From the NCBI GenBank assembly GCA_006844605.1, contig SPJN01000001.1, positions 74,024-138,023 on the forward strand: DNA of 64,000 bases, given 5' to 3'. Within the stretch, counting starts at the first letter, position 1; every line of letters begins with the position of its first letter. The DNA comes from Hyphomicrobiales bacterium. GTDB lineage: Bacteria; Pseudomonadota; Alphaproteobacteria; SPJN01. Shown here one piece after another: positions 7,933 to 42,826 of this stretch. A program made the translations under genes and the position numbers. Under the pieces are notes generated by a model. It saw only the letters and a program-made list of their open reading frames with translations. It had not been told where the DNA came from and did not search any database.

Positions 7933-9036
7933 ATGACTGACCAGATTACCAAAGACGCAGCCTATAACGCGGTTGCGCCGGATGATTTCAAAAGCATGAT
8001 CGAAGTGGATCGGTACAATGACCGTTCTACACATTTCGACAAGATTATCACCGCAACGCATGATCATTTCTGGGATCCGCTGGACGAAAAATATATCGAC
8101 TTTAACGAGCCATTCGATATTGAAAACGAAATGATCCTGCCGATTGAGCTGGTGCCTGAGCTGCAAACAGAAATCGCAGACAAGCTGACGGACAAGCAGA
8201 AGATTGCCTTTGCCAATGAAAACGCTCGTTGGATGTTGTCTGCCATTTTGCATGGTGAGCAAGGCGCGATGAGCCTGTCTGCAAGCCTGTGCCATATCTT
8301 GCGCGATCCGGGCGCACAGGAATATGCCTCAAACCAGGCACGTGAAGAGGCACGCCATGTGTTGGGCTTCTCCCGTTATATCCAGTCACGTTGGGGCACG
8401 CCGCTGACATGTGGTCAGACCCTGGCTGATTTGCTGGAAGAAATGGTCAACGCACCGCAGGTTTACAAAAAGCTGGTCGGTATGCAGATGCTGGTTGAAG
8501 GTTTGGCAATGGGTGCCTTTGCAACCTTGTTCAATCACGCCAAAGACCCGCTATTGGTTAAGTTGACCCAGTTGGTCATGACTGATGAAGCGTTCCACCA
8601 CAAGTTTGGTAAAATCTGGGCGGACAAAACCATTCCGCATCTGGATACCAAGGAACATGAGATCATCGAAGACTGGGCCGCAAAATGCTTCCAGACTTTG
8701 CTGTTCAACCTGATCAATCCCGAACAGAAGAAAGAGATTTATGGTCAGTTCGGGCTGGATTGGGAATGGTGCATGGAAGTTATGGTCAAGGCTGCAACTG
8801 ATGAAGTGCGCCGCGAACATATGCAGGAATCAACTGATATTTTCCGCGTGTTGATCAAAACACTGCTGAATGCCGGGATCATCACTGATCGGACCAAGCC
8901 ATTCTATGCCATGTATGTGGATATGGATGAATTGGCCAAGGAAGGTGACGAAATGGTTGGTGACGCGATTGCCGAAGAAGGCATCAAGTTCCTGCAAACC
9001 ATCAACTTTTCTGAAAAGGCTGCCGCTGCTGAATAA
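7933..9036 (+). CDS. ferritin-like diiron-carboxylate protein (AurF/CmlI-type oxygenase-like)
   Basis: Candidate diiron ligand motifs are HGEQG (E), EEARH (ExxH), VEGLAMG (E) and DEAFHHKF (ExxH plus H), spaced as in AurF-like N-oxygenases. The protein is 367 aa and soluble. Confidence 0.5.
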   Translation: MTDQITKDAAYNAVAPDDFKSMIEVDRYNDRSTHFDKIITATHDHFWDPLDEKYIDFNEPFDIENEMILPIELVPELQTEIADKLTDKQKIAFANENARWMLSAILHGEQGAMSLSASLCHILRDPGAQEYASNQAREEARHVLGFSRYIQSRWGTPLTCGQTLADLLEEMVNAPQVYKKLVGMQMLVEGLAMGAFATLFNHAKDPLLVKLTQLVMTDEAFHHKFGKIWADKTIPHLDTKEHEIIEDWAAKCFQTLLFNLINPEQKKEIYGQFGLDWEWCMEVMVKAATDEVRREHMQESTDIFRVLIKTLLNAGIITDRTKPFYAMYVDMDELAKEGDEMVGDAIAEEGIKFLQTINFSEKAAAAE

Positions 9037-13714: not shown

Positions 13715-14281
13715 CTAATAGGTCGCGTTACGGGATTCAAGGAACCGCATGATGCCGCGTTGGCGCGATTCTTCGGCATGGGCAAGGGCGCTGCGGCCCG
13801 TATAATCGGTGTGATTAAGGTCGGCACCGGCATCCGCCAGCGTGCGGACAATGCGCAAATGTCCCTTGCGGACAGCCTTGATCATGGCGGTTTCACCGCG
13901 ATCATCTTCCTGATTGAAGTCGGCGCCCGCATCGATCAGTTGCTCGACAATATCAATATTGCCTTCATCGGCTGCGGCGATCATTGCCGTTTCACCGGTT
14001 TCTTTTGTGGTGGCATTCACATTGGCCCGATTTTGCAGCAGAAAATCGATCAGATAATAGCGGTTATGCTGCGCGGCCAGAACAATGGCAGGCACGCCAT
14101 CACCATCCCGTTGATTGACGGATGAGCCGTTCAAAACCTCATGTCTGGCAATGGCGAGATTGTTATCCAAAATCGCATCAATCAATTTGCTGCCGGGCAA
14201 GCCTTGCGCGGTTGCCGGGCCTACTTGCGCAAGCAGACCAAGCGCCAATACGGCAATTGCCCCGGAGATGCGGCTGATCAT
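13715..14281 (-). CDS. secreted ankyrin-repeat protein
   Basis: At least four ANK repeats (GxTAL/MIxAAxxGHxxIVxxLLxxGAD). Signal peptide MISRISGAIAVLALGLLAQVGPATAQG. The ORF could extend to 14320. Confidence 0.75.
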   Translation of the reverse strand: MISRISGAIAVLALGLLAQVGPATAQGLPGSKLIDAILDNNLAIARHEVLNGSSVNQRDGDGVPAIVLAAQHNRYYLIDFLLQNRANVNATTKETGETAMIAAADEGNIDIVEQLIDAGADFNQEDDRGETAMIKAVRKGHLRIVRTLADAGADLNHTDYTGRSALAHAEESRQRGIMRFLESRNATY

Positions 14282-14495
14282 AGTGTGTCGAATGTGCCAA
14301 AACTGCATGGTTATTCTCATCTAGCCAACGCCCGGATCGAAAGTCGATGGGCGGTTTATCATGTGTCTATAGCAAAGCTACGCCAGGTTTGCCAATGATC
14401 CCGGTTCCTATGTCGAATGTACCAAAAGGCCGCCTTTTCCCGCAATTGCCCGCGCGCTAGACTAATGGCGACTCAAATTCAATCGGGAGAAATCC

Positions 14496-26969: not shown

Positions 26970-28019
26970 ATGAACCTGCCTGTTTCGTTTCGCCGTTTGA
27001 TGATTGCATCAACGCTTTTAGTGGTTTCTGCCGCGCCCATGGCTGTGGCGCAAGACACGCCCCTGTTGGTTGAGGTTGCTGCCGCAACCAACGCCGCCTT
27101 GACCGATCCGATTAAGGCACTGGGAACGTTAAAGCCGCGCGAGGCGGTGGATATCACTTCATCGGTTTCAGATAAGGTGCAGACAGTGCATGTGGCCGAT
27201 GGGGCCACTGTTGATGCGGGCGACCTGTTGGTCAGCCTTGAAAGTGCCGAGGAAAAGGCAGCTGTGCGTGCCGCTGCAGCCTTGGTTGAAGAACGCCGGC
27301 TGTCATATCGGCGGGCGCAGGATTTGGCAGAACGCAAGTCAGGCCCGCTGGCATTGGCCGAAGAACGCAGGGCAGCCTATGAACAGGCGGTGGCAGGGCT
27401 GGAAACAGCGCAGGCCCGCCTTGCTGATCGGCAGTTGCGCGCGCCATTTGCGGGGCAGTTGGGGTTCAAGCGTGTCAGCCCCGGTGCGCTGGTGCGCCCT
27501 GCGGATGTCATAATCTCCCTATGGGATACCCAAATGCTCTATCTGGACTTTACGGTGTCTGACCGTCATTTGGCCGCGCTGAAAAAGGGATTGTCGGTCA
27601 ATGCGACCGCAACGGCCTATCCTAAACGTGTATTTCAAGGGACGGTTGACCTTGTGAACCCGGCGGTTGATGCGTTGACCCGTGCGGTGACGGTGCGGGC
27701 ATTGCTTGACAACAGTGACGGCGCGCTGAAACCCGGCATGGCCCTGCAGGTGACCCTGAACAAGTCGCCGCGTGACGCCCTGATGATCCCTGAAGAAGCA
27801 TTGGTGCCATCCGATCAGGGGCAAAGGGTGTTCGTAATTGCGCCAACTGAACCGGGATTGGGAACAGTTTCGCAATCCATCGTTCAGTTGGGTGCGCGCC
27901 GACCCGGGAGTGTTGAAATTCTATCTGGCCTTGTGCCGGGTCAATTGGTTGTGACGCGCGGTACTTTACGTGTGCGCCCGGGCCAAACTGTCCGCTTCAA
28001 GGCGGAGGCTGCGCAGTGA
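26970..28019 (+). CDS. RND efflux periplasmic adaptor (membrane fusion protein)
   Basis: Signal peptide, coiled-coil hairpin and beta-barrel domains. The stop overlaps the start of the RND pump (GTGA). Confidence 0.85.
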   Translation: MNLPVSFRRLMIASTLLVVSAAPMAVAQDTPLLVEVAAATNAALTDPIKALGTLKPREAVDITSSVSDKVQTVHVADGATVDAGDLLVSLESAEEKAAVRAAAALVEERRLSYRRAQDLAERKSGPLALAEERRAAYEQAVAGLETAQARLADRQLRAPFAGQLGFKRVSPGALVRPADVIISLWDTQMLYLDFTVSDRHLAALKKGLSVNATATAYPKRVFQGTVDLVNPAVDALTRAVTVRALLDNSDGALKPGMALQVTLNKSPRDALMIPEEALVPSDQGQRVFVIAPTEPGLGTVSQSIVQLGARRPGSVEILSGLVPGQLVVTRGTLRVRPGQTVRFKAEAAQ

Positions 28020-31135: not shown

Positions 31136-32092
31136 ATGGGCGCGCCCTGCGCCAAGTTTAAGCGGTGGGGACACATCCTGCTTTAACATGCTGGCACCAT
31201 CCAAATCGCAAAAGTCAGCTTGGCTTGCCACGACAAAGGCAGGGGCCATGGCCCGTGATGTGCCGATCATGCAGCCGACCATCACCTTGAATTGTTGCGC
31301 CCTTGCGGCGTGAAGCAAGTGCAGCGCGGCGGTCAGGCCGCCTGTTTTATCCAGCTTGATATTCACAAATTGATAGCGGCCAACAAGCATCGGCAGGTCA
31401 TCAGCAGTTTTGCAGGCCTCGTCCGCTGCAAGCGGTATGGGGCAATCAATTGTGTCCAGCGCCGCATCTTGGCCTGCGGGCAGGGGTTGTTCTATCAGGC
31501 TGACCCGGTGCTTGGTTAATACAGGTATGATTTGCTGCAACAGGTCAGGCGTCCAACTTTCATTGGCATCGACAAACAGTTCTGCGGTTGGCAGGGCGTG
31601 GCGCACAGCGGCAAGCCTGTCGTCGATCAGCTCTGCGTTCAATTTGATTTTAACCAGATCATAGTCGCGCAGGGTGTTTGCGGCCCTTGCCATCTTTTCA
31701 GGCGTATCAATTGAAATTGTGTAATCCGCCCGCACCGGGTCGGTTGGCTCATCCAGTCCCAATATTTGCCAGATGCGCTTGCCTTCCTGTTTGCAGCGCA
31801 AATCCCACAGGGCGCAATCAAGCGCATTGCGCGCTGACCCGGCAGGCAACAGCTCAAGCAAATCATCATTACTGATCGTGCCGCTTTCGATTTGGGGACG
31901 GATAGCCGCCAGCTCCTGCAAGTCACCCGCTGGGCTGCGCCCCAAAAATGGTTTCGGCGTTGCCTCACCCCGGCCAATATGGCTGCCTTCTGAAAGTTCA
32001 ACACAGGTCAGCGCGACCTCGTCAAAGCCTTCGCGAGCCAGCACAAAGGGGACGGTCAGCTGTCGCTGGTCGGTATATGCGGTCAGTTTCAT
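31109..32092 (-). CDS. enolase-superfamily dipeptide epimerase (L-Ala-D/L-Glu epimerase-like)
   Basis: KxK (VKIKL) and the metal ligands D(FVDANE), E(IEQP) and D(AADE), with a second base in KLDKTGG. About 327 aa. Confidence 0.7.
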   Translation of the reverse strand: MKLTAYTDQRQLTVPFVLAREGFDEVALTCVELSEGSHIGRGEATPKPFLGRSPAGDLQELAAIRPQIESGTISNDDLLELLPAGSARNALDCALWDLRCKQEGKRIWQILGLDEPTDPVRADYTISIDTPEKMARAANTLRDYDLVKIKLNAELIDDRLAAVRHALPTAELFVDANESWTPDLLQQIIPVLTKHRVSLIEQPLPAGQDAALDTIDCPIPLAADEACKTADDLPMLVGRYQFVNIKLDKTGGLTAALHLLHAARAQQFKVMVGCMIGTSRAMAPAFVVASQADFCDLDGASMLKQDVSPPLKLGAGRAHSFAAALWG

Positions 32093-32183
32093 GGGCAAAC
32101 CATACTGAAATCAGATGATTCTGGGTATGGTTTCGCACGCCCTTTGGTGCCTGGCTTCTGAATTCGCAATTGGTGTGATTTAG

Positions 32184-32212
32184 TTGACAATGTATACTAT
32201 ATGCGTAAATAT
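32184..32212 (+). promoter_or_regulatory. candidate sigma70-type promoter (TTGACA-N16/17-TAAATAT) upstream of the SDR/sulfotransferase operon
   Basis: Seen directly: tagTTGACAatgtatactatatgcgTAAATAT, about 115 nt upstream of the ATG at 32326. Confidence 0.35.
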
Positions 32213-32325
32213 CCTGCCTAGATATTGCGAATAATGACAGTTTTGGGGTCGGAAATTGCCAACCTGCCGTGTGGGGTGGGGTGGTGATGGCCCAACAGGG
32301 TGGCAACAGGGCAGGGAATAATACA

Positions 32326-33093
32326 ATGACAAACGGACGTTTGGCCGGACGGGTTGGGCTTGTCACCGGTGCGGGGCAAGGTGTTGGTGCCGGTATTGCC
32401 AAGGCGCTGGTCGCCGACGGCGCTTCTGTGATGTTGGCTGGGCGCACCCTGTCAAAGGTTGAGGATCAGGCGGAGGCATTGGCCCGCGCAGGCGGCACGG
32501 TCACCGCCATGGCATGCGACGTCACTGATCGTGACGCATTGATTGCCGCTGTTGATACGACCGCCGGGCATTTCGGTAAGCTGGATATTTTGGTGAACAA
32601 TGCGCAGCAGGTGCCGCTTGGCCCCCTTCATAAACTTGATGACGATGCGGTTGAGGCAGGTTGGCAGTCAGGTCCAATGGCGGTTCTGCGGGCTATGCGT
32701 GCGGCATTACCCCATATGAAGGCAGCAGGCGGCGGGGCCATTGTTAATTTGGGATCATCGTCTGCATTTCGGTGGGATAATGGCGGCTATGGTGCCTATG
32801 GCGCCGTCAAGGAAGCGATCCGCCAACTGACGCGTGCAGCCGCAAGCGAATGGGGACGGTATGATATTCGCGCCAATGTGATCCTGCCGCTTGGCAACTC
32901 CCCCGGCATGGCAATGTGGAGCGAGCATAACCCTGACGAGGCTGCTGCCTTTGTCAAAACTGTGCCATTGGGCCGTGTCGGTGATTGTGAAGACGATATT
33001 GGCCGTGCCGTCGCGTGGCTGTGCAGTGACGAGGCAGGCTATGTCACCGGACAGTCAATCGGCCTTGATGGCGGTCAGGCACGCTTGGTCTAG
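32326..33093 (+). CDS. SDR-family oxidoreductase
   Basis: TGAGQGVGAGIA Rossmann motif and a YxxxK active site (YGAYGAVK). Confidence 0.8.
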   Translation: MTNGRLAGRVGLVTGAGQGVGAGIAKALVADGASVMLAGRTLSKVEDQAEALARAGGTVTAMACDVTDRDALIAAVDTTAGHFGKLDILVNNAQQVPLGPLHKLDDDAVEAGWQSGPMAVLRAMRAALPHMKAAGGGAIVNLGSSSAFRWDNGGYGAYGAVKEAIRQLTRAAASEWGRYDIRANVILPLGNSPGMAMWSEHNPDEAAAFVKTVPLGRVGDCEDDIGRAVAWLCSDEAGYVTGQSIGLDGGQARLV

Positions 33094-33101
33094 GGATAAT
33101 A

Positions 33102-34208
33102 ATGATGAACAAATCAATCGACGAGCAAGTCACCAGCGGCGCGGCATGGGCGCAATTCTGCGATGACCTGAAGGCGGTGGGTGACTTGCTGCTACAACCG
33201 GAAAATCCGCAGGATGCGTTTACGCAAGCCGAAGGGATGCGGTATCTGTCCCGCCTGACGCGGATGGGGCTTGAAAACTTTTTGGAATATCGCGACCCGC
33301 TGTTCCCGGTGTTTCGTCGTTCCTGTCATGAAACGATCAAGCTGGGTGGTGATAACCCGGACAATCATTATGCCAATGCGCAGATTGACGGATCGTTTGA
33401 CTACAAGATCACAGGGTCGCGCGGGTCTGTTCACTATTTGGGGATCGGAACCCAATCCGGCAATTACGGCAAGGACGGGACGTTGCAAACCATCGGCTTT
33501 ATCGATGCCGATAAGGATATTGCGATTAATGATGATGGCAGTTTTGAAATCATCGTGTCGCAAACAGAACAGCCGGGCAATTGGCTGAAGATGACAGACG
33601 GTACGGGCATGGTGCTGGTGCGCCAAACCTTTCATGATCGCGAAACAGAAACCCCTGCTGTGCTGACGATTGAACGGCTAAATGCAGAGGGTGAGGCCCC
33701 TGCACCCCTGTCGTCGCAACGTATCGCGCATGGGTTGATGGCGGCCAGCCGCTACGTGGCAGGCTCCGTCAAGTTGTTCTTGGAATGGAGCCATGAGTTC
33801 CGCACCTATGACCTCAACACGTTCAAAATGCTGGATCATAAACGCGCCCAGCGTGTCGGGGGCGATCCCAATATACGCTATTTTTATGGGTGGTATGATT
33901 TCGCAGATGATGAGGCATTGGTGATCACCACACCGCTGCCTGAATGTGATTACTGGAATATCCAATTGTGCAATTTTTGGATGGAAAGTTTTGATTATCG
34001 CTATCACCGGGTTCATCTGAACCACCACCTTGCGCAAAATGACGGCAAGACGGCTGAGGTTGTGGTGGCGCACAGGCAGCTGGATCACCCCAACGCCATC
34101 GAAACGGCAGGCCATAAGGAAGGCGTGTTGATGTGGCGCTGGATCGGCGCATCTGATCACCCTGTCCCGCAAGTGCGCAAGGTGAAGATAAGCGAGATTG
34201 CAGGATGA
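33102..34208 (+). CDS. conserved hypothetical protein, translationally coupled to sulfotransferase
   Basis: A 368-aa soluble protein with no recognisable catalytic motif by eye. Its stop overlaps the next start (ATGA at 34205-34208). Confidence 0.55.
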   Translation: MMNKSIDEQVTSGAAWAQFCDDLKAVGDLLLQPENPQDAFTQAEGMRYLSRLTRMGLENFLEYRDPLFPVFRRSCHETIKLGGDNPDNHYANAQIDGSFDYKITGSRGSVHYLGIGTQSGNYGKDGTLQTIGFIDADKDIAINDDGSFEIIVSQTEQPGNWLKMTDGTGMVLVRQTFHDRETETPAVLTIERLNAEGEAPAPLSSQRIAHGLMAASRYVAGSVKLFLEWSHEFRTYDLNTFKMLDHKRAQRVGGDPNIRYFYGWYDFADDEALVITTPLPECDYWNIQLCNFWMESFDYRYHRVHLNHHLAQNDGKTAEVVVAHRQLDHPNAIETAGHKEGVLMWRWIGASDHPVPQVRKVKISEIAG

Positions 34209-35383
34209 GCCGCATTCCCCTGGAACGTGATGCCCTGATGGCGGCGGCGGTGCAATCTGCCGGGCTGGACGATTTCGGCGATTTGTTTTTTATAGAGCCG
34301 TTGGATGTTTTGTTAAGCGCCCTCACAACCGAAGCTGATCTGAACGATGCGGCCCTGAAAGTGCGGCCCATGCAGTTGGTCAACAGTTTGGTCAATCGCC
34401 TGCGGACAGAGGATTACATCAAACGCCATCCGGAAATTTTGGATGAAGAAATTTTGGTCGATGCGGTAATTGTTGGTTTGCCGCGCACAGGCAGCACAAT
34501 GCTGCATCGCCTGTTGGCAGCTGATCCGGGCAATACCGCGATGCAGATGTGGGAAGGGGGGCAACCTGCGCCTTGGCCTGAAGAGGACTTGGGTACAGCA
34601 AAAGAGCTGGGGAATCCCATCGGCCGCCAGAAAATGGGCGAGAAGACCGCCGCCTATATTAATCAATCCAGCCCCGGCTTTGGTTCGATCCATGATGTGA
34701 ATGCCTATAGTCCAGAAGAAGAAATCCTGCTGCTGGAACATTGTTTCATGAGCTCAGTCCCTGAATCCGGTTTCTATATCCCCAGCTATACGGATTATCT
34801 AAAGGGCGCTGATCATTCGCGCGCCTATCAGGATTTGAAACGCTTTCTGCAATTCTTGCAATGGCAGCGCCCCGAACGGCGTGGCAAAAAATGGGTGCTG
34901 AAAACACCGCAGCATGTCCCGTTGGTTGATGTTGTGCTGAAGACGTTTCCCGGGGCCAAGATTGTCATGACCCATCGTGATCCGGTTGAAACCGTGCCCA
35001 GCTTTTGTTCGATGGTCGCGCATTATGCAGGGCCGTGGACCAATCACCTTGATGAAAAGGCGATCGGCAAATTGTGGGCCGATCGCTTGGCGTGGAACCT
35101 TGACCAGTTTATGCAGCAGCGTGATGCGCTGGGTGAGGCGCACTTTATCGATACTGACTACCGCAAGACCATCACTGATCCGCTTGGGGTGGCGCGTGAT
35201 CTGTACGCGCAGTTGGGCCGCACCGTCACCGCATCGGGTGCGGCGCAGATGAAAGAACATGCAGCGGCCAACAAGAAAAACAAACATGGCAAGCATCACT
35301 ATACCGCAGCGCAATTCGGGTTAAGTGACAGTGGCATTGCAGACCAGTTCGCTGCCTATCGTGGCCGATATATCAAAGGGTAA
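34205..35383 (+). CDS. PAPS-dependent sulfotransferase family protein
   Basis: 5'-PSB loop LPRTGSTMLHRLL and a downstream 3'-PB-like region. About 390 aa and cytoplasmic. Confidence 0.7.
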   Translation: MSRIPLERDALMAAAVQSAGLDDFGDLFFIEPLDVLLSALTTEADLNDAALKVRPMQLVNSLVNRLRTEDYIKRHPEILDEEILVDAVIVGLPRTGSTMLHRLLAADPGNTAMQMWEGGQPAPWPEEDLGTAKELGNPIGRQKMGEKTAAYINQSSPGFGSIHDVNAYSPEEEILLLEHCFMSSVPESGFYIPSYTDYLKGADHSRAYQDLKRFLQFLQWQRPERRGKKWVLKTPQHVPLVDVVLKTFPGAKIVMTHRDPVETVPSFCSMVAHYAGPWTNHLDEKAIGKLWADRLAWNLDQFMQQRDALGEAHFIDTDYRKTITDPLGVARDLYAQLGRTVTASGAAQMKEHAAANKKNKHGKHHYTAAQFGLSDSGIADQFAAYRGRYIKG

Positions 35384-35389
35384 TCACAA

Positions 35390-36172
35390 ATGTTGTTGAA
35401 AGATAAAGTTGTTCTGATCACAGGAATTGGCCCGGGCATGGGCCAGCACCTTGCCCGCATCGCTGCCGAAGAAGGCGCGAAAATCGCCATTTGCGCCCGC
35501 AACAAGGAACGGCTTGACGGTTATGCAGTTGATATCGCAAAGGCGGGCGGTGACGTGATTGCCATCCCGACAGATATTGCGGATGAAGGACAGGTTAGCC
35601 ATTTTGTGGACACCGCAGCACAGCATTATGGCCGTGTCGATGGGCTGGTGAACAGCGCCTATAAGCATGTGGGGTTTAAGCCGTTTGAGGATGCCGATCT
35701 GGATGTGTGGCGGGCCAGTATGGAAACCAATTTCTTTGGCACATTGTCTGTCACGCAGAAAGCGGTGCCCCATATGAAGGCGGCAGGCGGCGGGGCAATT
35801 GTGTCGGTCAACACAATGGCGAACCGGAAACCCATGGCGGGCGAGGGCGGCTATGCCAGTGCCAAGGCGGCAATGGCAGGCGCAACCCGTATGCTGGCCC
35901 AGGAGTTGGGGCAGTATAATATTCGCGTCAACTCAACCTTTATGGGGTGGTTATGGGGTCCTGGCGTGCAGGGATATGTTGCCCACACCGCCAAGGCACA
36001 AGGCGTTGACGAAGCGCAGATCATCAAGGGCATCACCCGCAATATCCCGCTGGGTGTGGTGCCGCCCGATGAAGAATGCGCCAAGACGGTTTTGATGTTC
36101 GTGTCGGACTATACAAAGATGGTCACCGGCGCGTCATTGGATGTGAATGGCGGCGAGTTTATGACGCCCTAA
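35390..36172 (+). CDS. SDR-family oxidoreductase
   Basis: ITGIGPGMGQHLA glycine motif and YASAKAAM (YxxxK). Confidence 0.85.
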   Translation: MLLKDKVVLITGIGPGMGQHLARIAAEEGAKIAICARNKERLDGYAVDIAKAGGDVIAIPTDIADEGQVSHFVDTAAQHYGRVDGLVNSAYKHVGFKPFEDADLDVWRASMETNFFGTLSVTQKAVPHMKAAGGGAIVSVNTMANRKPMAGEGGYASAKAAMAGATRMLAQELGQYNIRVNSTFMGWLWGPGVQGYVAHTAKAQGVDEAQIIKGITRNIPLGVVPPDEECAKTVLMFVSDYTKMVTGASLDVNGGEFMTP

Positions 36173-36197
36173 TTTTGGGTCGTGCAGGAGTTGAGCA

Positions 36198-36683
36198 ATG
36201 GCATTGGATCTTGAAGCAATTGAGCTGATTAAGCAGCTAAAGCACCGCTACTTTCGGTGTCTTGATATGGCCGACCATAATGAATTGGCCACAACATTGA
36301 CCGATGATGTGACGATTGATTATCAGGGCGGATCGTATCGTGCCCAATATGATAATCGTAGCGACTTTCTTGAATTTTTGGCTATGGCCTTTCATTCGCA
36401 GGCTGTGGCCCAGCATACCGCCCACCATCCTGAAATTGAGGTTGCTGCCGATGGCAAGACCGCGACGGGCAAATGGTATTTGCATGATATTTTCTGGGAT
36501 TTGAAATACCGCGTGAAAACATCAGGCGTTGCGCTTTACCAAGACAAATATGTCAAAACGGACGATGGCTGGAAAATCGCCCATTCAGGCTATACGCGGG
36601 TGTATGAGTTGGTTGAGAAGATTGAGGAAGACCCGCCCTTTACCGCCCGTCATTTGCAATCGGTGGGGCGGGTGCTGGATTAG
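36198..36683 (+). CDS. NTF2-like (SnoaL/ketosteroid-isomerase-like fold) protein
   Basis: 161 aa. The LIKQLKHRYFRCLDMAD N-terminus is typical of SnoaL-like/NTF2 family proteins. Confidence 0.55.
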   Translation: MALDLEAIELIKQLKHRYFRCLDMADHNELATTLTDDVTIDYQGGSYRAQYDNRSDFLEFLAMAFHSQAVAQHTAHHPEIEVAADGKTATGKWYLHDIFWDLKYRVKTSGVALYQDKYVKTDDGWKIAHSGYTRVYELVEKIEEDPPFTARHLQSVGRVLD

Positions 36684-37138
36684 TCTTTATCTTTGAAGGG
36701 TGTTTTGAAGGCACCTTTCAGGATTTTCCAGACGCCGCTGGCATTGGCAACGACGTTGCCATCGGCCAATAATTCACCTTGCACAAAAACCATCGACCCG
36801 CCGCGCGATACCTTGGTGGCAACCGCCTCCAGCACCATGCCTTCGGTAATCGCGCCAATGAAATTGGTAGTGAGCGAGACTGTGACCGCAGGCTGGTCAC
36901 CAATAAAGTGCCAGGCAGCAGCGCCCAAAGCCTCGTCCGCTATGGTCATGGTCAATCCACCATGAACGCGTGCGCCTGAATTAAGGTGACGCTCTTCGAT
37001 CTTCAGGCCAAACCAATGTTGCTGTGCGCCATCTGGCCCGTCTGTTATTTTGTGCCAAAACGGTCCGGCAATATCGCCGAAGGGGTCGTAATAATCGCCC
37101 TGTGCATAACCATCTGGCATAGTTGGTTGGTCGGTCAT
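36680..37138 (-). CDS. PaaI/YbgC-type hotdog-fold thioesterase
   Basis: 152 aa with HGGLTMTIADEALGAA, the hotdog-fold catalytic region. Confidence 0.7.
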   Translation of the reverse strand: MTDQPTMPDGYAQGDYYDPFGDIAGPFWHKITDGPDGAQQHWFGLKIEERHLNSGARVHGGLTMTIADEALGAAAWHFIGDQPAVTVSLTTNFIGAITEGMVLEAVATKVSRGGSMVFVQGELLADGNVVANASGVWKILKGAFKTPFKDKD

Positions 37139-37884
37139 GACTTGTGGGCCTCCGCAGCGATGTTCAGGAAGCTTGGCGGCTCCCCGCCCCCATGAACTTC
37201 AAGCGATGCGCCGCTGATATAGCTGGCCTGATCCGATGTCAGGAACAGGCAGGCCTGCGCGATATCTTCCGGTGTCGCCATACGCTTCATGGGCAGGGCC
37301 GCTTCAATTTTTCGGATACCCTCGTCGCCCGCGTAATGGTCATGGGCCGCTGGGGTCTTGATCAGGCCAGCAATGATGGCGTTGACGCGCACCTTGGGGG
37401 CCCACTCCATCCCCAATGATTGCGTCAGGTTCAGCAGGCCCGCCTTGGCCGCGCCATAGGCTGCGGTCCCGGGGCTGGGGCGCATGCCAGATACGCTGGC
37501 AATATTCACGATCGCGCCACCATCGGTCATGTGTTGATGGGCAGCCTGTGCCAAGTTCAACGGCGCAATCAGGTTCAGCTTGATAATGCTTTCAGAAAAC
37601 CGGGGGGATGCTGTGGCAGCATCCGCCGGGGGACTGCCCCCTGCATTGTTGATCAGAATGTCAAACCGGCCATCCTTCGTGGCAATGTCAGCGATCAATG
37701 TTGCCACCTGTTCCGGGTCGCGAATATCGGCGCTGATGAACTGTGCGGCGCTTTCATTGTCGGGGTTGTTGCGCCCGCAAGTCCAAACCGATGCGCCCGC
37801 AGCAAGATAGGCGTCAGCGATTGCCCTGCCCACGCCGCGCGTGCCGCCGGTGACCAGCACCGTTTTGCCGTTAAAGCCTGTCAT
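37135..37884 (-). CDS. SDR-family oxidoreductase
   Basis: VTGGTRGVGRAIA glycine motif and YGAAKAGL (YxxxK). Overlaps the thioesterase gene by 4 nt, so the two are probably an operon. Confidence 0.85.
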   Translation of the reverse strand: MTGFNGKTVLVTGGTRGVGRAIADAYLAAGASVWTCGRNNPDNESAAQFISADIRDPEQVATLIADIATKDGRFDILINNAGGSPPADAATASPRFSESIIKLNLIAPLNLAQAAHQHMTDGGAIVNIASVSGMRPSPGTAAYGAAKAGLLNLTQSLGMEWAPKVRVNAIIAGLIKTPAAHDHYAGDEGIRKIEAALPMKRMATPEDIAQACLFLTSDQASYISGASLEVHGGGEPPSFLNIAAEAHKS

Positions 37885-38030
37885 GACGTGCCTTCTTTTC
37901 CTGATTCATCTTGCAATTCTACGCAAACCACATAGAATATCGAGCAATAATTTGCCAAATGCGTAAAAAACTATCGTAATTATAACGCATATGGATGGTT
38001 TGGCCTGATTCTTCAGGCAGGGAGGAATAT

Positions 38031-39614
38031 GTGACCGAAACCGGGAAACCTGCGGGTCCGGCGCTTTTGCGCAAGACCATGCCGCAAATGTTGCGGCAGG
38101 CGGCGGCAACTTGGCCTGATCATATCGCAATTTTGGAAGATGGTGAAAGCCTGACCTATCAGGACTTGCTTGCGCAGGCGTCTGAGGTGGCTGCCGGCTT
38201 TGTCAGCGCGGGGCTGGATAAGGGTGACAGGTTTGCAATCTGGGCACCCAATTGCCGTGAATGGATTGTGACCGCGTTGGGTGGTTTGATGGCCGGGTGT
38301 GTGCTTATCCCGATCAATACGCGTTTCAAGGGGAGCGAGGCTGCCGATATTCTGGGCCGTGGCGGGGTGAAGGCCCTGTTCACGGTGAAGGGTTTTTTGG
38401 GGGCCGACTATCCCGCCATGTTGGATGGGTATGACCTGCCCACACTTGATTTAACGGTGCTGTTGCGCGGCGACAACGGGGCCAGTTGGGCCGGCTTTAT
38501 TGACAGTGTAATCGATGAAGATCGCGTCCGCGCCCATGAGCGTGAGGCCGCGCTGCGCCCAGAAGACGTGGCTGATATCTTGTTCACGTCGGGCACGACA
38601 GGCCAGCCCAAGGGGGCAATGACGGCGCATGGACAAAATGTGGCTGTGTTTGATGAATGGGCCAGTCTGATCAGCCTGCATGATCAGGATCGCTATTTGA
38701 TCGTCAATCCATTCTTTCACAGCTTCGGCTATAAGGCAGGCTGGTTTGCCTGCCTGTTAAAGGGGGCAACAGCCTTGCCCCATGCGGTGTTTGATGTGGA
38801 TCAGATATTGGATCGTATCGCCGCTGACAAGGTTACGGTGTTGCCGGGGCCGCCAACCATTTTCCAAAGCCTGATAAATCACGCCGGGTTGGCGGGGGCC
38901 GATATCAGCAGCCTGCGTGCCACGGTGACGGGCGCGGCGTCCATCCCTGTGCATTTGGTTGAACAGATGAAGCAGGTGCTGGGCTTTGACATTGTGTTAA
39001 CCGCCTACGGCCTGACTGAGGCGACGGGCACTGTCACCATGTGTCGACCCGAAGATGATTTTGAAACCATTGCCAACACGTCTGGCCGCGCCATTCCGTT
39101 TGTGGAGGTGAAATGCGTGGACGGGCAGGGCAATGCCGTGCCCGCGGATGAGGCAGGGGAAGTGCTGATCCGTGGTTATAATGTGATGCAGGGCTATCTT
39201 GATAATCAGGCCGCCACAGATGACGCGATCACAGATGATGGTTGGTTGAGGACCGGTGACATCGGCATTCTGGACGCGCACGGTTATTTGCGTATCACTG
39301 ACCGGGCGAAGGACATGTTCATTACCGGTGGGTTTAATTGTTATCCGGCTGAAATTGAAAACACATTATTGCGGCATGACGCTGTGGCTGACGCTGCGGT
39401 TATCAGCGCGCCTGACGACAGAATGGGTGAAGTTGCCCATGCCTTTATCGTGTTGAAGGCAGGGCAGGTGTTAGAGGCCAATGAGTTGATTGGCTGGGCA
39501 CGTCATGAGATGGCGAATTATAAAGTGCCGCGACTTGTCAGTTTTGTGGACGAGTTGCCGCGCAACGCTTCAGGAAAAGTACAGAAATTCAAATTACGGG
39601 ATTTGGCTGCATGA
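38031..39614 (+). CDS. AMP-dependent acyl-CoA synthetase/ligase (class I adenylate-forming)
   Basis: AMP-binding motifs FTSGTTGQPKG and YGLTE, and TGDIG with a C-terminal GKVQK. GTG at 38031 has a GGAGG 7 nt upstream. The stop overlaps the next start. Confidence 0.8.
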   Translation: MTETGKPAGPALLRKTMPQMLRQAAATWPDHIAILEDGESLTYQDLLAQASEVAAGFVSAGLDKGDRFAIWAPNCREWIVTALGGLMAGCVLIPINTRFKGSEAADILGRGGVKALFTVKGFLGADYPAMLDGYDLPTLDLTVLLRGDNGASWAGFIDSVIDEDRVRAHEREAALRPEDVADILFTSGTTGQPKGAMTAHGQNVAVFDEWASLISLHDQDRYLIVNPFFHSFGYKAGWFACLLKGATALPHAVFDVDQILDRIAADKVTVLPGPPTIFQSLINHAGLAGADISSLRATVTGAASIPVHLVEQMKQVLGFDIVLTAYGLTEATGTVTMCRPEDDFETIANTSGRAIPFVEVKCVDGQGNAVPADEAGEVLIRGYNVMQGYLDNQAATDDAITDDGWLRTGDIGILDAHGYLRITDRAKDMFITGGFNCYPAEIENTLLRHDAVADAAVISAPDDRMGEVAHAFIVLKAGQVLEANELIGWARHEMANYKVPRLVSFVDELPRNASGKVQKFKLRDLAA

Positions 39615-41410
39615 CAATATCACGCGAAGAAACGCAGGAAAAAATCAACCGCCAGATTTTTGGCGCGAGCAAGAACAAGCCCAGTCAAGCACATTGTGTG
39701 GCTGATCGTTATGAACAATGGGCAACCGAACGGCCCGATGTGCCCGCCGTACTTTATCAGGACCGGGTGTTAAGTTACGCGGACCTTGACGCGGCTGCCA
39801 ATCAGTTGGCTGTTGTGCTGCATAACAAGGGTGTGGAACGCGGTGATGTGGTGGCGTTCGGTATGGAGAACCGCCCAGAGTTTTATGTTGGGGTTTTGGC
39901 GCTGGCCAAATTGGGTGCTGTTGGGTCCCTGATCAATATTCAGCAGGTTGGCGATCGGCTGGTTTATTCGGTTGAAAAAGTAACGCCAAAACTTGTTCTG
40001 TTTGGCTCTGAATGTATTGCAAGTTTACAGGCCGCGTGGCCAACACCGACCGCGCCCGTATTGGTCTGGCAGGACCCTGAATCGCCACAAGATGCGGGCA
40101 GCTATGCCGAGGATATTACCGATGTTATCGCCGCAGCCGACCCGGGGGGCTATGACAAGTCATGGCGTGATGGATTGGTGGCGGGTGACATGTTCGTCTA
40201 TGTCTTCACGTCAGGCACGACAGGCTTCCCCAAGGCGGCAAAGCTGTCCCATGTGCGTTGGTTGAATACCGGCGATGGGATGAGCGCGCTTTTGGAATTT
40301 CGTCCAGATGACGTGTTCTATTGCACCTTGCCGCTTTACCATTCGGCGGGGCTGATGTCGTTAACGTCGATGTGTTTGGCGGTGGGCGGCACGATGGCGA
40401 TGCGGCGCAAATTCTCTGTCTCGCAATTCTGGGACGATATCCGCAAACATAACGTAACCGTGACGCAATATATTGGCGAGATGTGCCGTTATCTGATGGC
40501 ACAGCCGGAACAGGCTGATGATGCAGACAATCCGCTGCGCGCCATGATCGGTAGTTCCATCGGGATGGATATCTGGGCCGCGTTTAAGGAACGCTTTGCA
40601 GTTGACCAGATTTTTGAAGGGTGGGGGGCAACAGAAGCCAATACCGGCATGACCAATGTTGACGAAAAAATCGGTGCTGTTGGCCGTGTGCCCTTCAAGG
40701 AGATGAGCAATATTCGCCTCGTCCGTTTTGATGTCGAAGCGGACGATCACATCCGTGATGAAAATGGCTTCTTGATTGAGTGTGAGCCTGATCAGCCCGG
40801 TGAGGTTGTGGCACGTATCTTGGCGCTGCCCGATAGTGCTGCTGGACGGTTCGAAGGCTACACGGATGCGGAGGCGACTGAGGCAAAAATCCTGCGCAAT
40901 GTGTTTGAGGAAGGCGATGCCTATTTCCGTTCAGGTGATTTGATGAAGCGGGATGCGGATGATTATTTCTATTTCCTTGATCGCATCGGCGATACGTTCC
41001 GGTGGAAGTCGGAAAATGTGTCCACGATGGAAGTGGCAGAAGAATTGTCGGGCTTTGACGGTATTGCCTTTTGCAACTGTTATGGTGTGCGTGTGCCGGG
41101 CACCGAAGGGCGCGCGGGTATGGTGGCGCTGGGCCTGAAAGACGGGGCAAGTTTTGATGCTGTGGGCTTCTACAAATTTGCCAAGGAGCGTCTGGCCCAT
41201 TACGCCGTGCCGCTGTTTGTCCGCATTGCCGAGGAATTGGACATGACCTCCACGCTCAAGATGCGCAAAGTGGATTTTCAGCGGCAGGGGTATGACCCTG
41301 CGGCGATGGATGATCCGCTTTATGTGATTGATGATGCGGCAGGGGCTTATGTACCGCTGAATGATCAGGCGCTATCAAATGCAGGCTTGGCACCGTTTGA
41401 CGGGGACTGA
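39611..41410 (+). CDS. FATP/very-long-chain acyl-CoA synthetase-like ligase (bile-acid-CoA-ligase-related subfamily)
   Basis: FVYVFTSGTTGFPKAAKLSHVRW and YRSGDLMKRD are FATP/FadD6-like signatures. 599 aa. Confidence 0.75.
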   Translation: MTISREETQEKINRQIFGASKNKPSQAHCVADRYEQWATERPDVPAVLYQDRVLSYADLDAAANQLAVVLHNKGVERGDVVAFGMENRPEFYVGVLALAKLGAVGSLINIQQVGDRLVYSVEKVTPKLVLFGSECIASLQAAWPTPTAPVLVWQDPESPQDAGSYAEDITDVIAAADPGGYDKSWRDGLVAGDMFVYVFTSGTTGFPKAAKLSHVRWLNTGDGMSALLEFRPDDVFYCTLPLYHSAGLMSLTSMCLAVGGTMAMRRKFSVSQFWDDIRKHNVTVTQYIGEMCRYLMAQPEQADDADNPLRAMIGSSIGMDIWAAFKERFAVDQIFEGWGATEANTGMTNVDEKIGAVGRVPFKEMSNIRLVRFDVEADDHIRDENGFLIECEPDQPGEVVARILALPDSAAGRFEGYTDAEATEAKILRNVFEEGDAYFRSGDLMKRDADDYFYFLDRIGDTFRWKSENVSTMEVAEELSGFDGIAFCNCYGVRVPGTEGRAGMVALGLKDGASFDAVGFYKFAKERLAHYAVPLFVRIAEELDMTSTLKMRKVDFQRQGYDPAAMDDPLYVIDDAAGAYVPLNDQALSNAGLAPFDGD

Positions 41411-41494: not shown

Positions 41495-42826
41495 TTAAAG
41501 ACCCAGACCGATCAGACCCAAAATGGTGTCGGGGCCGAAGCCTGCGCCACCACCGCTGGGTGACAGACCTTTAAGGTTGATCAGCATTGTGGTCGGGTCA
41601 GTGTTGCCACCAACGGCTTCCAGAATGGTGATCTCTGTCAGGCCTGATGCATCGCTAAGCGGTGCCAATAACGGCAGGCCAATTTCCAACAGGGCGTCGG
41701 AACCGGCTGCGCCGGGCTGACCGGAAACCCCAATGGCAACCAGTGATTCCAGATCAGGAATGCCTGAAGGGGCACCTGACGGTGCGCTACCTGCATCAAG
41801 GTTCAGCAATGCTGTGGCAGGATCAGTGTTGCCGTTAATCGCTTCCAGAACAGAAATGTTGACATTCTCGCCACCGTCAAACACCTGCAGGGCAGACGCC
41901 TGTACGATATTGTTCTTGGAACCACCAGCGGGGTCGTTACCAATCACAACATCGGCAAGTGAGCTTTGGTTGGCTGCAGATGCCGGATCACTTGAAAGAC
42001 CGGTCAGGCCCTGACCAACAGCAACCGCAATAACGGAACCATTGTCGCCAGAGGCACCACCGAAGCTCAAGCTACCATTTTGATCTGATGTGGCGTCGTC
42101 AGCTGCTGAGCTGGCCAAATCACCATCAAGGCCGTCTGCTGAACCATCATCATTAACGTCATCGCTGGCAATTGCATCGCCTGATGCGCTGGGATCGTCC
42201 AAGCTATCGTCACCGTCGCCGTCACCGGCTGCTGCAACATCGTCGCCTGAATCAGCGCCGTCTGTTGTGTCGTCACTGGCATCACCGAACAGATCATCGC
42301 CTGCATCGGTGTCGGTGCCGCCTGTTGTGTCGTCAGCGAACAGATCGTCGAACTCATCTGCGTCGTCAGCTTCTGCTGCCTCATCGGCGGCATCACCGGC
42401 GTCGGCCATGTCGTCGGCAACGTCATCATCGGCTGCATCTTCTGCAACCTGATCATCACCCGCGGCGTCATCACCGGTTTCGGCTGTTTCTTCTTCGTCA
42501 CCGAAAAGGTCTTCATCATCGGCGAACAAGTCTTCTTCTTCGTCTGATTCTTCAGCGAACAAGTCTTCTTCTTCGTCGGCACTTTCATCGTCGGTCATGA
42601 AGTCGGCGAAAAGATCATCTTCATCTTCCGCATCTTCGGTTTTACATTCGTCAGGAATATCCTGTTCCAGAAAACCAAGTGCTGCGGCGTCTTTATATTC
42701 GGCGCACTTGTCTTCTTGTGCTGCCATATCTTCCTGCGCGTCAACGAAGGAAGGGGCACCAATTGACAAGATGCCTGCGAATGCGATGGCGCTGATGCCA
42801 CCCAAAAGTTTGTGACGGATAGACAT
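41495..42826 (-). CDS. secreted polyacidic repeat protein (hypothetical)
   Basis: Signal peptide, about 250 aa of D/E-rich low complexity with repeated (E/D)DLF(A/G)D units, then a C-terminal Gly/Ser-rich region with two ~25-aa repeats (LEA(I/V)NGNTDP.T.L.NL). Confidence 0.6.
   Translation of the reverse strand: MSIRHKLLGGISAIAFAGILSIGAPSFVDAQEDMAAQEDKCAEYKDAAALGFLEQDIPDECKTEDAEDEDDLFADFMTDDESADEEEDLFAEESDEEEDLFADDEDLFGDEEETAETGDDAAGDDQVAEDAADDDVADDMADAGDAADEAAEADDADEFDDLFADDTTGGTDTDAGDDLFGDASDDTTDGADSGDDVAAAGDGDGDDSLDDPSASGDAIASDDVNDDGSADGLDGDLASSAADDATSDQNGSLSFGGASGDNGSVIAVAVGQGLTGLSSDPASAANQSSLADVVIGNDPAGGSKNNIVQASALQVFDGGENVNISVLEAINGNTDPATALLNLDAGSAPSGAPSGIPDLESLVAIGVSGQPGAAGSDALLEIGLPLLAPLSDASGLTEITILEAVGGNTDPTTMLINLKGLSPSGGGAGFGPDTILGLIGLGL
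42490..42600. repeat. intragenic 33-bp tandem repeats (GCGAACAAGTCTTCTTCTTCGTC at 42522 and 42555) encoding EEEDLFA units
   Basis: A 23-bp perfect direct repeat with 33-bp period, seen directly. Confidence 0.6.

Follow-up and report, generated by a model that had tools for sequence, protein, structure and literature searches.

Bacterial sulfotransferases have been described in several settings where the gene or domain next to them serves the same reaction. In Mycobacterium tuberculosis, the PAPS-dependent sulfotransferase Stf3 (sulfomenaquinone S881) is encoded beside Cyp128, an enzyme that prepares its lipid acceptor, and in rhizobia the sulfotransferase NodH is encoded beside the dedicated PAPS synthesis genes of NodPQ. 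In curacin CurM, sulfation activates a hydroxyl for elimination, the enzyme that then acts on the sulfate ester is physically linked to the sulfotransferase (ST), and a ketoreductase (SDR-type) step precedes the ST step. Closer to the locus examined here is the M. tuberculosis operon Rv3531c-Rv3530c-Rv3529c, in which Rv3529c encodes Stf1, a protein whose crystal structure has been available for years. In the MTBC locus the order is a 375-aa gene, an SDR gene and the Stf1 gene, with overlaps of 4 nt and 1 nt. A KstR operator lies upstream of Rv3531c, within the KstR cholesterol regulon (PMC1995591). One source lists Rv3531c among the genes predicted to be needed by cells growing on cholesterol, a second-hand Tn-seq call, but lists neither Rv3529c nor Rv3530c in this way (PMC6429209).

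The window, which is the whole 64,000-nucleotide stretch of DNA analysed, and the Rv3531c-Rv3530c-Rv3529c operon hold the same three protein families, each in one tightly coupled same-strand run. In the window these are ORF A (33102..34208), the ST (ORF B; 34205..35383) and an SDR gene (35390..36172); successive genes are spaced by -4 and +6 nt. ORF A is 28% identical to the 375-aa MTBC protein (E=2e-30), and the downstream SDR aligns along its whole length with the 260-aa MTBC SDR at 37% identity (E=7e-58). The run ORF A-ST-SDR is the counterpart of the M. tuberculosis operon, although the gene order is DUF-ST-SDR in the window and DUF-SDR-ST in M. tuberculosis. The KstR operator found in the M. 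tuberculosis locus is absent from the window, where a search for TAGAACNNGTTCTA with up to 2 mismatches gave no match. Because KstR is actinobacterial, this absence is expected. Steroid-ring degradation genes are likewise absent, as no KshA, Hsa or FadE-pair genes were found in the window.

The other systems are less similar. The NodH-NodPQ arrangement resembles those ORF A-ST loci elsewhere that are linked to cysD/cysNC, but ORF A is neither a P450 nor a known tailoring enzyme, and its linkage to the ST is far wider and tighter than in Stf3-Cyp128 or NodH-NodPQ. CurM differs in having its domains fused inside a polyketide synthase, an ST from another subfamily and an alpha/beta-hydrolase as its second enzyme. 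Unlike CurM, the ORF A-ST pair has no conserved thioesterase.

The overlap between ORF A and the sulfotransferase gene

ORF A (368 aa) and the ST gene (392 aa) are on the forward strand and both begin with ATG. ORF A is 100% identical to an annotated alphaproteobacterial MAG protein with the same deposited start and stop coordinates, and both ORF A and ORF B are real genes. The junction reads gcaggATGAgc, with the first A of the ATGA at 34205 and the last at 34208. The ATG that starts the ST gene (34205-34207) and the TGA that ends ORF A (34206-34208) thus lie within the same 4 nt, and direct reading of the sequence agrees with the original prediction that the stop of ORF A overlaps the ST start. 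The accompanying claim, that this overlap implies stoichiometric co-expression, did not survive, since the same overlap is common in the window, and neither does the overlap prove a complex. Further 4-nt overlaps are found at 28016-28019, 39611-39614, 37135-37138 (minus strand) and 49599-49602, one of which joins two acyl-CoA synthetase genes. Tight spacing recurs between ORF A and the ST gene in other loci: among 132 same-strand pairs of the two genes, a start codon was available between -8 and +30 nt from the upstream stop in 117 and an exact 4-nt overlap was available in 60.

A 4-nt overlap between ORF A and the ST gene is also present in the deposited annotation of all five proteobacterial genomes that were examined and had been annotated independently (Burkholderia, Pseudomonas, Cupriavidus, Halioglobus and Hydrocarboniphaga). 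It is the conservation of the gene pair that is above chance, while the ATGA overlap itself is generic in the window. Promoter and terminator scans of positions 31900-38100 found matches at chance level only.

ORF B is predicted to be an Stf1-type sulfotransferase

ORF B matched the Pfam Sulfotransfer_3 profile over positions 3-213 of 216 with 122.4 bits (cutoff 27; E=4.3e-35). It also matched the Stf1 structure (PDB 2zq5) over residues 9-383 (E=2.3e-54) and, at 4e-34, PDB 2z6v. The 5'-phosphosulfate-binding loop G91-L-P-R-T-G-S-T98 and the 3'-phosphate motif H257-R258-D-P...S266 are both present, and K233, P235 and H237 fall within the sequence WVLKTPQH. An alignment of 20 homologues shows no variation in the columns holding G91, L92, R94, K233, P235, H237, H257, R258 and S266. 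The loop (G-x-x-R/K-x-G-S/T-T) and the R...S motif correspond to motifs that generally bind PAPS in sulfotransferases. ORF B is thus predicted to be a PAPS-dependent sulfotransferase of the Stf1 type.

ORF A is a member of the 6ANS family

The original prediction could assign no motif to ORF A. It is, however, a clear member of a family represented by PDB 6ANS, an uncharacterised Burkholderia cenocepacia protein from structural genomics that has been public since 2017. The match to 6ans_A covers residues 8-365 (E=1e-103), and ORF A belongs to this family by both full-length sequence and structure. The protein is cytoplasmic and DUF1214-like, with the VPA0735 fold. Residues 6-62 form N-terminal helices and are followed by a first beta-sandwich (88-192), a long helix (205-233) and a second beta-sandwich (258-362). 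A signature G-x-D-N-P-D-x-x-Y at residues 82-90 recurs in the form G-G-D-P-N-x-x-Y at 253-260. Across the family no variation was seen, even at 26% identity, in D84, P86, D87, Y90, Y101, R174, N239, W293 or R346, while H338 and the second GGDPN motif are lost in distant clades. The mean pairwise distance was 0.47 for ORF A and 0.60 for the ST, so ORF A is the better conserved of the two. About a third of ORF A homologues carry an amphipathic N-terminal extension rich in Arg and Leu.

The Pfam profile DUF1214 (PF06742) scored 22.2 bits on ORF A, under the cutoff of 25, and aligned only at positions 57-103 of 112. Precomputed PF06742 matches in most ORF A homologues are likewise flagged as faint or weak. 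The DUF1214-like match lies at residues 131-172 and a DUF1254 (PF06863)-like match at 239-309, which is the reverse of the canonical order with DUF1254 N-terminal and DUF1214 C-terminal. The canonical order is seen in VPA0735 and VPA0106 of Vibrio parahaemolyticus (PDB 2P3Y and 3U07). ORF A is shorter than these proteins, has no signal peptide and shows no detectable sequence relationship to them, even with the family profile. An NCBIfam search returned no match for either ORF A or the ST, and profile and sequence searches revealed neither a cofactor-binding motif in ORF A nor any resemblance to a hydratase or isomerase. Open-access literature searches on DUF1214, DUF1254, their pairing with a sulfotransferase and the genes Rv3529c, Rv3530c and Rv3531c found no functional study, nor any paper giving a substrate or function for Stf1 (Rv3529c) or 6ANS. 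The family to which ORF A belongs is an uncharacterised one, and not a characterised family unrelated to sulfation, which the original prediction had named as grounds for abandoning a link to the ST.

Conservation of the gene pair

An ORF A homologue is found beside an Stf1-type ST in hundreds of bacteria, including M. tuberculosis. When genome loci were collected using ORF A, the ST gene was directly adjacent and on the same strand in 70 of the 77 informative loci. Among the remainder, the ST gene was adjacent but convergent in two and 3.7 kb away in one, and in four loci there was no ST gene within 3-8 kb of the ORF A homologue. Starting instead from the ST in metagenomes, an ORF A homologue was found in 66 of 69 informative loci, and three ST loci were without one. 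The metagenome scan was seeded with a narrow ST alignment, as a broader, more diverse one was unsuitable. In the ORF A loci that have no ST, no alternative group-transfer partner such as a kinase was found; the neighbours were a GST and a nitroreductase, an acyl-CoA dehydrogenase, or an SDR.

The loci with the pair span at least nine phyla, and the pair was found in Alpha-, Beta- and Gammaproteobacteria, Actinomycetota, Gemmatimonadota, Acidobacteriota, Myxococcota, Spirochaetota, Chlorobiota and Dadabacteria. ORF A precedes the ST gene in 121 cases and follows it in 11, and both orders occur with tight spacing. In Mycobacterium and in a Polyangiaceae genome, an SDR gene lies between the two. 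The pairwise distance matrices of ORF A and the ST were correlated (r=0.76 for 114 pairs), a value that is confounded by shared phylogeny.

The two genes are a conserved unit, and a lack of conservation as neighbours, which the original prediction had named as refuting it, was not what the loci showed. Of the two forms of linkage that it suggested checking, fusion or constant adjacency in other genomes, adjacency held at the frequencies given above, but neither some 134 pairs nor 360 listed cluster representatives yielded a DUF-ST fusion. An apparent fusion at one locus was an alignment segment that crossed a stop codon, which was visible in the translation. A conserved functional partnership of ORF A and the ST is well supported, and the conserved neighbourhood makes it almost certain that both proteins act on a common molecule.

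The SDR gene and other neighbours

Two SDR genes flank the pair in the window, both on the forward strand. The downstream one (35390..36172, 260 aa; Pfam adh_short, 3e-46) starts 6 nt past the ST stop and is the counterpart of Rv3530c. The upstream one (32269..33093; Pfam adh_short_C2, 1.6e-49) has a deposited start at about 32326, giving a protein of 255 aa, and its stop is 8 nt before the ORF A start. It is 29% identical to Rv3530c and 57% identical to the SDR upstream of the ORF A homologue in another of the loci examined. The last gene of the same-strand run encodes a small SnoaL_4 (NTF2-like) protein (36198..36683; Pfam SnoaL_4, 1.1e-26).

Neighbours in other genomes were counted using tblastn, and clustering of the longest ORFs was dropped because it mis-called antisense ORFs in GC-rich loci. 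An SDR gene was adjacent to the pair, or between its members, in 73 of 104 informative loci, and the SDR is the usual third member of the cassette. A gene for an NTF2 or SRPBCC protein was found no more than 2.8 kb from the pair in 41 of 104 loci, and SRPBCC genes were near the pair in 45 loci. SnoaL_4 or SnoaL_2 genes adjoin the pair in Cupriavidus, Hydrocarboniphaga and Halioglobus.

In Cupriavidus, cysD and cysNC are annotated beside the pair, and a cysNC-type gene is beside the Burkholderia pair; overall, cysD/cysNC were beside the pair in about 8-10 loci. A gene for a DHH-motif protein, a candidate PAP phosphatase, lies 3' of the pair in 10 loci. The link to cysD/cysNC in some lineages points to real sulfation by the pair. 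The Burkholderia locus that encodes 6ANS has cysNC-type, DHH-like and SRPBCC genes, whereas the window has none of the three, and no PAPS genes were found in it.

The neighbours of the pair share a hydrophobic or lipid theme but vary between loci. They include a FadE pair in Gordonia, an acyl-CoA dehydrogenase and SnoaL_4 in Hydrocarboniphaga, KshA and HsaF/G in mycobacteria, and the SRPBCC genes of the 45 loci mentioned above. In the window, Pfam matches and the deposited annotation identify a 4HBT thioesterase (36680..37138) and an SDR (37135..37884) on the minus strand, followed by two acyl-CoA synthetases (37995..39614 and 39611..41410) on the forward strand. These lipid/acyl-CoA genes are possibly associated with the pair locally but are not conserved with it, and among 172 loci homologues of the thioesterase were found only on the contig of the window itself.

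Possible roles of ORF A

We think it reasonably probable that ORF A is an obligate genomic partner of the Stf1-type ST in a cassette that modifies a hydrophobic hydroxylated substrate. ORF A, the ST and the SDR, often with an NTF2-like or SRPBCC protein, would form an ancient cassette inherited as a unit, with a substrate that, going only by the variable neighbours, may be of a steroid, isoprenoid or lipid kind. In the order that we would propose, the SDR would adjust the oxidation level of a carbon in a ring or chain (keto to hydroxyl) and the ST would then transfer sulfate from PAPS to that hydroxyl, with ORF A probably dealing with the acceptor or the product of the ST reaction and not with its PAPS side. 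Its two-lobed beta-sandwich with a conserved polar constellation might hand a poorly soluble acceptor to the ST, or might convert the acceptor or its sulfate ester. A physical complex of ORF A and the ST is compatible with catalytic and passive roles alike, and any contact or catalysis by ORF A is something that we infer. The invariant polar residues, together with the better conservation of ORF A than of the ST, slightly favour a catalytic role, and we place a catalytic or ligand-converting ORF A just short of an even chance, ahead of a purely passive specificity subunit.

The passive role was the suggestion of the original prediction. ORF A would then be a non-catalytic substrate-binding or specificity subunit in a stoichiometric complex with the ST, extracting or presenting a poorly soluble acceptor, and we regard this as possible but doubtful. 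The near-obligate adjacency, the occurrence of both gene orders, the recurrent stop/start overlaps and the congruent distance matrices are consistent with such a subunit. The amphipathic N-terminal extension of some homologues could sit on a membrane surface, and an additional conserved stretch of some 85 residues at the N-terminus of the Stf1-type ST could be a docking site. However, the overlap is generic in the window, fusions were absent from the pairs and representatives surveyed, and the SDR gene separates ORF A from the ST in mycobacteria and in the Polyangiaceae genome. The polar set D84, D87, Y90, R174, N239 and R346 is also invariant at 26% identity in the better conserved of the two proteins, and this pattern looks more like fixed chemistry than a variable specificity determinant. 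The listing of Rv3531c, but not of Rv3529c or Rv3530c, as needed on cholesterol also speaks against such a subunit (PMC6429209).

If ORF A is an enzyme, it might consume the sulfate ester made by the ST, so that sulfation would serve as leaving-group activation and be followed by an elimination, substitution or rearrangement that releases sulfate. The dedicated genes for PAPS supply and for candidate PAP removal that adjoin the pair imply a high sulfate flux, the invariant Arg, Asp, Tyr and Asn residues of ORF A are of a type that could hold an anionic group and drive it out, and that ORF A is better conserved than the ST also fits. NTF2-like proteins, whose fold is used by dehydratases and isomerases, recur nearby, the module is found in catabolic rather than envelope-biosynthetic settings, and the scheme resembles the sulfotransferase/thioesterase logic of CurM. 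It is nevertheless purely inferential and we consider it improbable, as H338 is lost in distant clades, no thioesterase or other obvious chemistry partner is conserved with the pair and, to our knowledge, no sulfate-ester lyase has the fold of ORF A. Quite improbable is a step ahead of the ST, in which ORF A, as a hydratase or isomerase introducing the hydroxyl for instance, would produce or remodel the acceptor. Cyp128 prepares the Stf3 acceptor in a comparable way, ORF A is usually the first gene and has a conserved polar site, and a phenotype is listed for Rv3531c and not for the genes downstream of it, but ORF A has neither a cofactor-binding motif nor similarity to hydratases or isomerases, and the SDR already offers a route to a hydroxyl. 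A place on the nucleotide side, where PAPS or PAP would be bound or recycled, could draw on the several invariant arginines of ORF A, which might bind phosphates, and adjacency alone cannot tell which molecule is shared by the pair or whether ORF A is an unrelated passenger in the operon. Both are very unlikely. The cysD/cysNC and DHH-type candidate PAP phosphatase genes found separately beside the pair in several lineages indicate that PAPS-side functions are already covered by other genes, and such a role for ORF A was demoted when they were found. A passenger would leave unexplained the two-way adjacency of 91-96%, its extent over at least nine phyla and both gene orders, and we know of no report of other bacterial sulfotransferase types with such a partner.

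With a near-obligate two-family neighbourhood, the SDR trio and, in some lineages, the attached PAPS supply and candidate PAP-removal genes, what were separate orphans become one tractable problem, and the cassette would open a way into three genes of the M. tuberculosis cholesterol regulon that are uncharacterised. It is unlikely, though of wider consequence, that the 6ANS/Rv3531c family is a new enzyme class acting on the sulfate esters of its Stf1-type partner, for example as a sulfate-eliminating lyase or a rearranging enzyme. PAPS-driven sulfation would in that case be how many bacteria activate a leaving group when metabolising steroid-like or isoprenoid alcohols, and M. tuberculosis would do so within its cholesterol regulon. 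The cassette in the window is itself ordinary, one more copy of a very widespread one.

The ORF A-sulfotransferase pair

ORF A (33102..34208, + strand, 368 aa in the ORF listing) and the next gene, ORF B (34205..35383, + strand, 392 aa), have bases 34205-34208 in common, with the TGA of the former and the ATG of the latter lying in the sequence gcaggATGAg at 34200-34209. In an alphaproteobacterial MAG (GCA_039768095.1), the deposited annotation for this contig includes a protein 100% identical to ORF A and gives matching coordinates for both ORFs, so the ATGA overlap originally predicted at 34205 was confirmed from both the sequence and the annotation. By itself, the overlap carries little weight. 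Four further 4 nt overlaps were found within the window, between RND adaptor and pump genes (28016-28019), between thioesterase and short-chain dehydrogenase/reductase (SDR) genes on the - strand (37135-37138), between two paralogous acyl-CoA synthetase genes (39611-39614) and at 49599-49602, and coupling of this type is therefore routine in this genome.

Judged by its sequence, ORF B is a sulfotransferase. It matched Pfam Sulfotransfer_3 (122 bits, E=4e-35), and the nearest solved structures were 2zq5 (E=2e-54) and 2z6v, which represent M. tuberculosis Stf1 and M. avium Stf9, respectively. The predicted PAPS-binding loop (G91-LPRTGST) and an HRDP...S motif were invariant across homologues.

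A scan seeded with ORF A, using one genome per species, recovered 586 stretches encoding relatives, and a sulfotransferase gene was sought by tblastn in the best 80 loci. It was immediately downstream on the same strand in 59 and immediately upstream on the same strand in 10, while L066 had an incomplete copy upstream at a contig edge. In two loci the sulfotransferase gene was adjacent but convergent, in one it was 3.7 kb away and in four it was missing. As three loci were too short to judge, same-strand adjacency was found in 70 of the 77 informative loci among these best 80. When the search was seeded with the sulfotransferase, an ORF A homologue was present on the same strand in 66 of 80 metagenome loci, within 400 nt in 63 of them; 11 of the remaining 14 had less than 300 nt of upstream sequence, leaving three informative loci from which it was absent. 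The partnership claimed in the original prediction is supported by this adjacency, conserved in both directions. The loci came from Alpha-, Beta- and Gammaproteobacteria, Actinomycetota, Gemmatimonadota, Acidobacteriota, Myxococcota, Spirochaetota, Chlorobiota and Dadabacteria.

A start codon was available between -8 and +30 nt from the upstream stop in 117 of 132 same-strand pairs, with an exact 4 nt overlap available in 60 and a 1 nt overlap in 12, all counted on candidate starts. The 4 nt overlap seen in the window was also the annotated arrangement in each of five genomes with independent annotation (Burkholderia, Pseudomonas, Cupriavidus, Halioglobus and Hydrocarboniphaga). No fusion of the two genes was found across about 134 pairs, and no protein of fusion length was among the 360 cluster representatives listed; the sole candidate, in L117, was ruled out by a stop codon between the two.

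Pairwise distance matrices for the two proteins were correlated (r=0.76, 114 pairs), which reflects co-inheritance and not contact, as shared ancestry inflates the correlation. ORF A was the more conserved (mean distance 0.47 versus 0.60 for the sulfotransferase). A distant ORF A clade (25-28% identical) was also linked to a sulfotransferase gene, lying downstream of it in metagenome loci L128, L140 and L149 and upstream in L145, and the L140 and L149 homologues include the motif RWGIDNPDSIY. The pairing is therefore older than the divergence of this clade. The two genes are passed on and expressed as one unit.

ORF A belongs to the 6ANS family

The original prediction that ORF A has no assignable motifs did not hold. 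A profile of the ORF A family matched only 6ANS, a solved Burkholderia cenocepacia protein, among PDB sequences, and ORF A is an ordinary member of this family, with paired GDNPDxxY/GGDPNxxY motifs. This is a very large family: at E<=1e-60, more than 5,500 cluster representatives group with 6ANS alone. Pfam membership is borderline, as the DUF1254 match (23.9 bits, cutoff 22.2) covered half of the profile, the DUF1214 match scored 22.2 bits (cutoff 25) and their order is the opposite of the canonical one. An NCBIfam search gave no match.

In the ORF A model, N-terminal helices (residues 6-62) are followed by a beta-sandwich (88-192), which a long helix (205-233) separates from a second one (258-362). 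There is no signal peptide. K-L-G-G-D-N-P-D-N-H-Y (80-90) precedes the first sandwich and V-G-G-D-P-N-I-R-Y (252-260) the second. Each sandwich includes a D-G-x-hydrophobic-x-hydrophobic(3) ... N-W/A-hydrophobic stretch (DGSFEIIVS...NWL and DGKTAEVVVA...NAI) that closes on an invariant arginine (R174 and R346), with equivalents equally spaced over residues 80-174 and 252-346. Alignment of the halves is in register but weak, with E=0.16 by BLASTP and E=2.5e-4 (43% probability) by hhalign, and an internal duplication is suggested, not proven. Residues D84, P86, D87, Y90, Y101, G146, R174, N239, G253, W293, T335, G337, G341 and R346 were invariant down to 26% identity, and N85, D145, D179, N307, N331 and W332 were nearly so across clades. 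Such lasting conservation of polar residues is suggestive of a binding or catalytic site.

About one-third of homologues are 395-405 aa long and are extended at the N-terminus by about 30 residues that form an amphipathic, Arg/Leu-rich stretch (e.g. MRKLAIGLLAAFRRLLLLARRL; N-termini of homologues P0010, P0027 and P0033), which is absent from ORF A in the window (33102..34208). This extension does not resemble a signal peptide and might anchor the protein at a membrane surface.

Genes associated with the pair

Where at least 900 nt was available on both sides of the pair (104 loci), an SDR gene directly adjoined the pair or lay between its genes in 73, and is usually part of the unit. A gene for an NTF2-like or SRPBCC small protein was found within 2.8 kb in 41 of the 104. 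In the window, all on the + strand, an SDR gene (32269/32326..33093) precedes ORF A, and a second SDR gene (35390..36172) and one for a SnoaL_4 protein (36198..36683) follow the sulfotransferase gene, with successive spacings of 8, -4, 6 and 25 nt. Beyond this run are convergent thioesterase and SDR genes, then two acyl-CoA synthetase genes.

Dedicated PAPS metabolism genes are attached to the unit in some lineages. The PAPS synthesis genes cysD and a cysN-cysC fusion flank the pair in Burkholderia and Cupriavidus, and in about 8-10 loci overall. In 10 loci (Pseudomonas, Burkholderia, Cupriavidus and seven others), a gene for a protein of about 320-328 aa lies 3' of the pair, after the sulfotransferase or SDR gene; examples outside the window are L085:10284-11246, L084:11150-12136 and L169:12158-13123. 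The protein has the DHH-family motifs DADG, DHH and GGGR and a weak DHHA1 match (24.3 bits), with no confident Pfam match and no match to PDB sequences. NrnA-type enzymes are a DHH-family analogue suggestive of PAP phosphatase activity, making this protein a candidate PAP phosphatase that, with cysD/cysNC, would complete a local PAPS cycle.

The surroundings of the pair in Halioglobus maricola (L170, 5663-17461) are rich in sulfur-ester genes, with two extra sulfotransferase genes, an alkyl-sulfatase-type gene (Lactamase_B and Alkyl_sulf_dimr) and genes for a Zn-dependent alcohol dehydrogenase, an old-yellow-enzyme-type reductase (Oxidored_FMN) and an SDR.

The mycobacterial counterpart

In the M. 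tuberculosis complex (MTBC) contig, a PPE gene on the minus strand is followed by genes for a 375-aa protein, a 260-aa SDR and a 384-aa sulfotransferase, with KshA a few genes on. This arrangement recurs in M. kansasii. In the MTBC contig the three genes overlap by 4 and 1 nt, and from their order, lengths and the gene table of PMC6429209 they are Rv3531c, Rv3530c and Rv3529c. The contig encodes a protein 99% identical to the 2zq5 sequence. The 375-aa protein had no Pfam match and was 28% identical to ORF A over 307 residues (E=2e-30). The downstream SDR of the window and Rv3530c could be aligned from end to end (37% identity, E=7e-58), whereas the upstream SDR was more distant (29%). In proteobacteria, the cassette seen in the window corresponds to Rv3531c-Rv3529c, though the SDR gene lies between the other two in mycobacteria and after the sulfotransferase gene in the window.

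Binding of KstR, the cholesterol-regulon regulator, to an operator between Rv3531c and Rv3532 has been reported (Kendall et al., PMC1995591), and a machine-learning preprint predicted a sterol-like substrate for Rv3530c. Neither a KstR-type operator nor steroid-ring genes were found within the window. Searches of the open-access literature found no biochemical function for Rv3531c, Rv3530c or Rv3529c and no mention of DUF1214 together with a sulfotransferase.

Possible role of ORF A

The neighbours of the pair repeatedly point to hydrophobic substrates. They include FadE pairs in Gordonia, an acyl-CoA dehydrogenase and SnoaL_4 in Hydrocarboniphaga, KshA and HsaF/G in mycobacteria, SRPBCC lipid-binding folds, and the acyl-CoA synthetases and thioesterase in the window. 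The SDR would interconvert a keto and a hydroxyl group of a steroid-like compound, isoprenoid or lipid, and the sulfotransferase would transfer sulfate from PAPS onto the hydroxyl so set. Since donor synthesis, transfer and by-product removal are encoded separately in the cysD/cysNC/DHH loci, ORF A is left for the acceptor or product side, and would deal with the acceptor or its sulfate ester.

We tentatively favour a ligand-converting role for ORF A over that of a pure specificity subunit passively presenting the acceptor to the sulfotransferase, which we consider rather unlikely. The invariant polar constellation of ORF A tilts towards conversion, and ORF A is more conserved than the sulfotransferase. 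Also against a specificity subunit, the SDR gene intervenes between the two genes in mycobacteria, either gene is occasionally found alone, and a separate, predicted cholesterol phenotype is listed for Rv3531c but for neither Rv3530c nor Rv3529c (PMC6429209). The Arg/Leu extension would be consistent with a membrane-surface role, whether the protein converts or presents its ligand.

Characterised sulfotransferase pairings include Stf3-Cyp128, NodH-NodPQ and the CurM ST-TE, and none of these is known to use a protein with the VPA0735 fold of ORF A. Their partners are quite unlike ORF A, and the present cassette differs in having an uncharacterised, near-obligate partner; the window copy itself is nothing unusual. 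With this conserved unit, Stf1 and 6ANS, two families that have long been orphans, can be tested together.

Other features of the window

Elsewhere the window has ordinary core-chromosome content, including sucABCD, mdh, lpd and an RND pump. Adjoining the acyl-CoA synthetase genes is a 443-aa ORF (41495..42826, - strand) whose N-terminus is hydrophobic and whose body is repetitive and extremely acidic (DLFAD, EEEDLF and DD-rich runs), to which the deposited annotation assigns no Pfam family. Unrelated to the pair are an ORF at 7933..9036 (+ strand) with a sub-threshold match to AurF-like di-iron oxygenases (27.4 bits, cutoff 29.6) and a gene for a 201-aa ankyrin-repeat protein at 13715..14320 (- strand).
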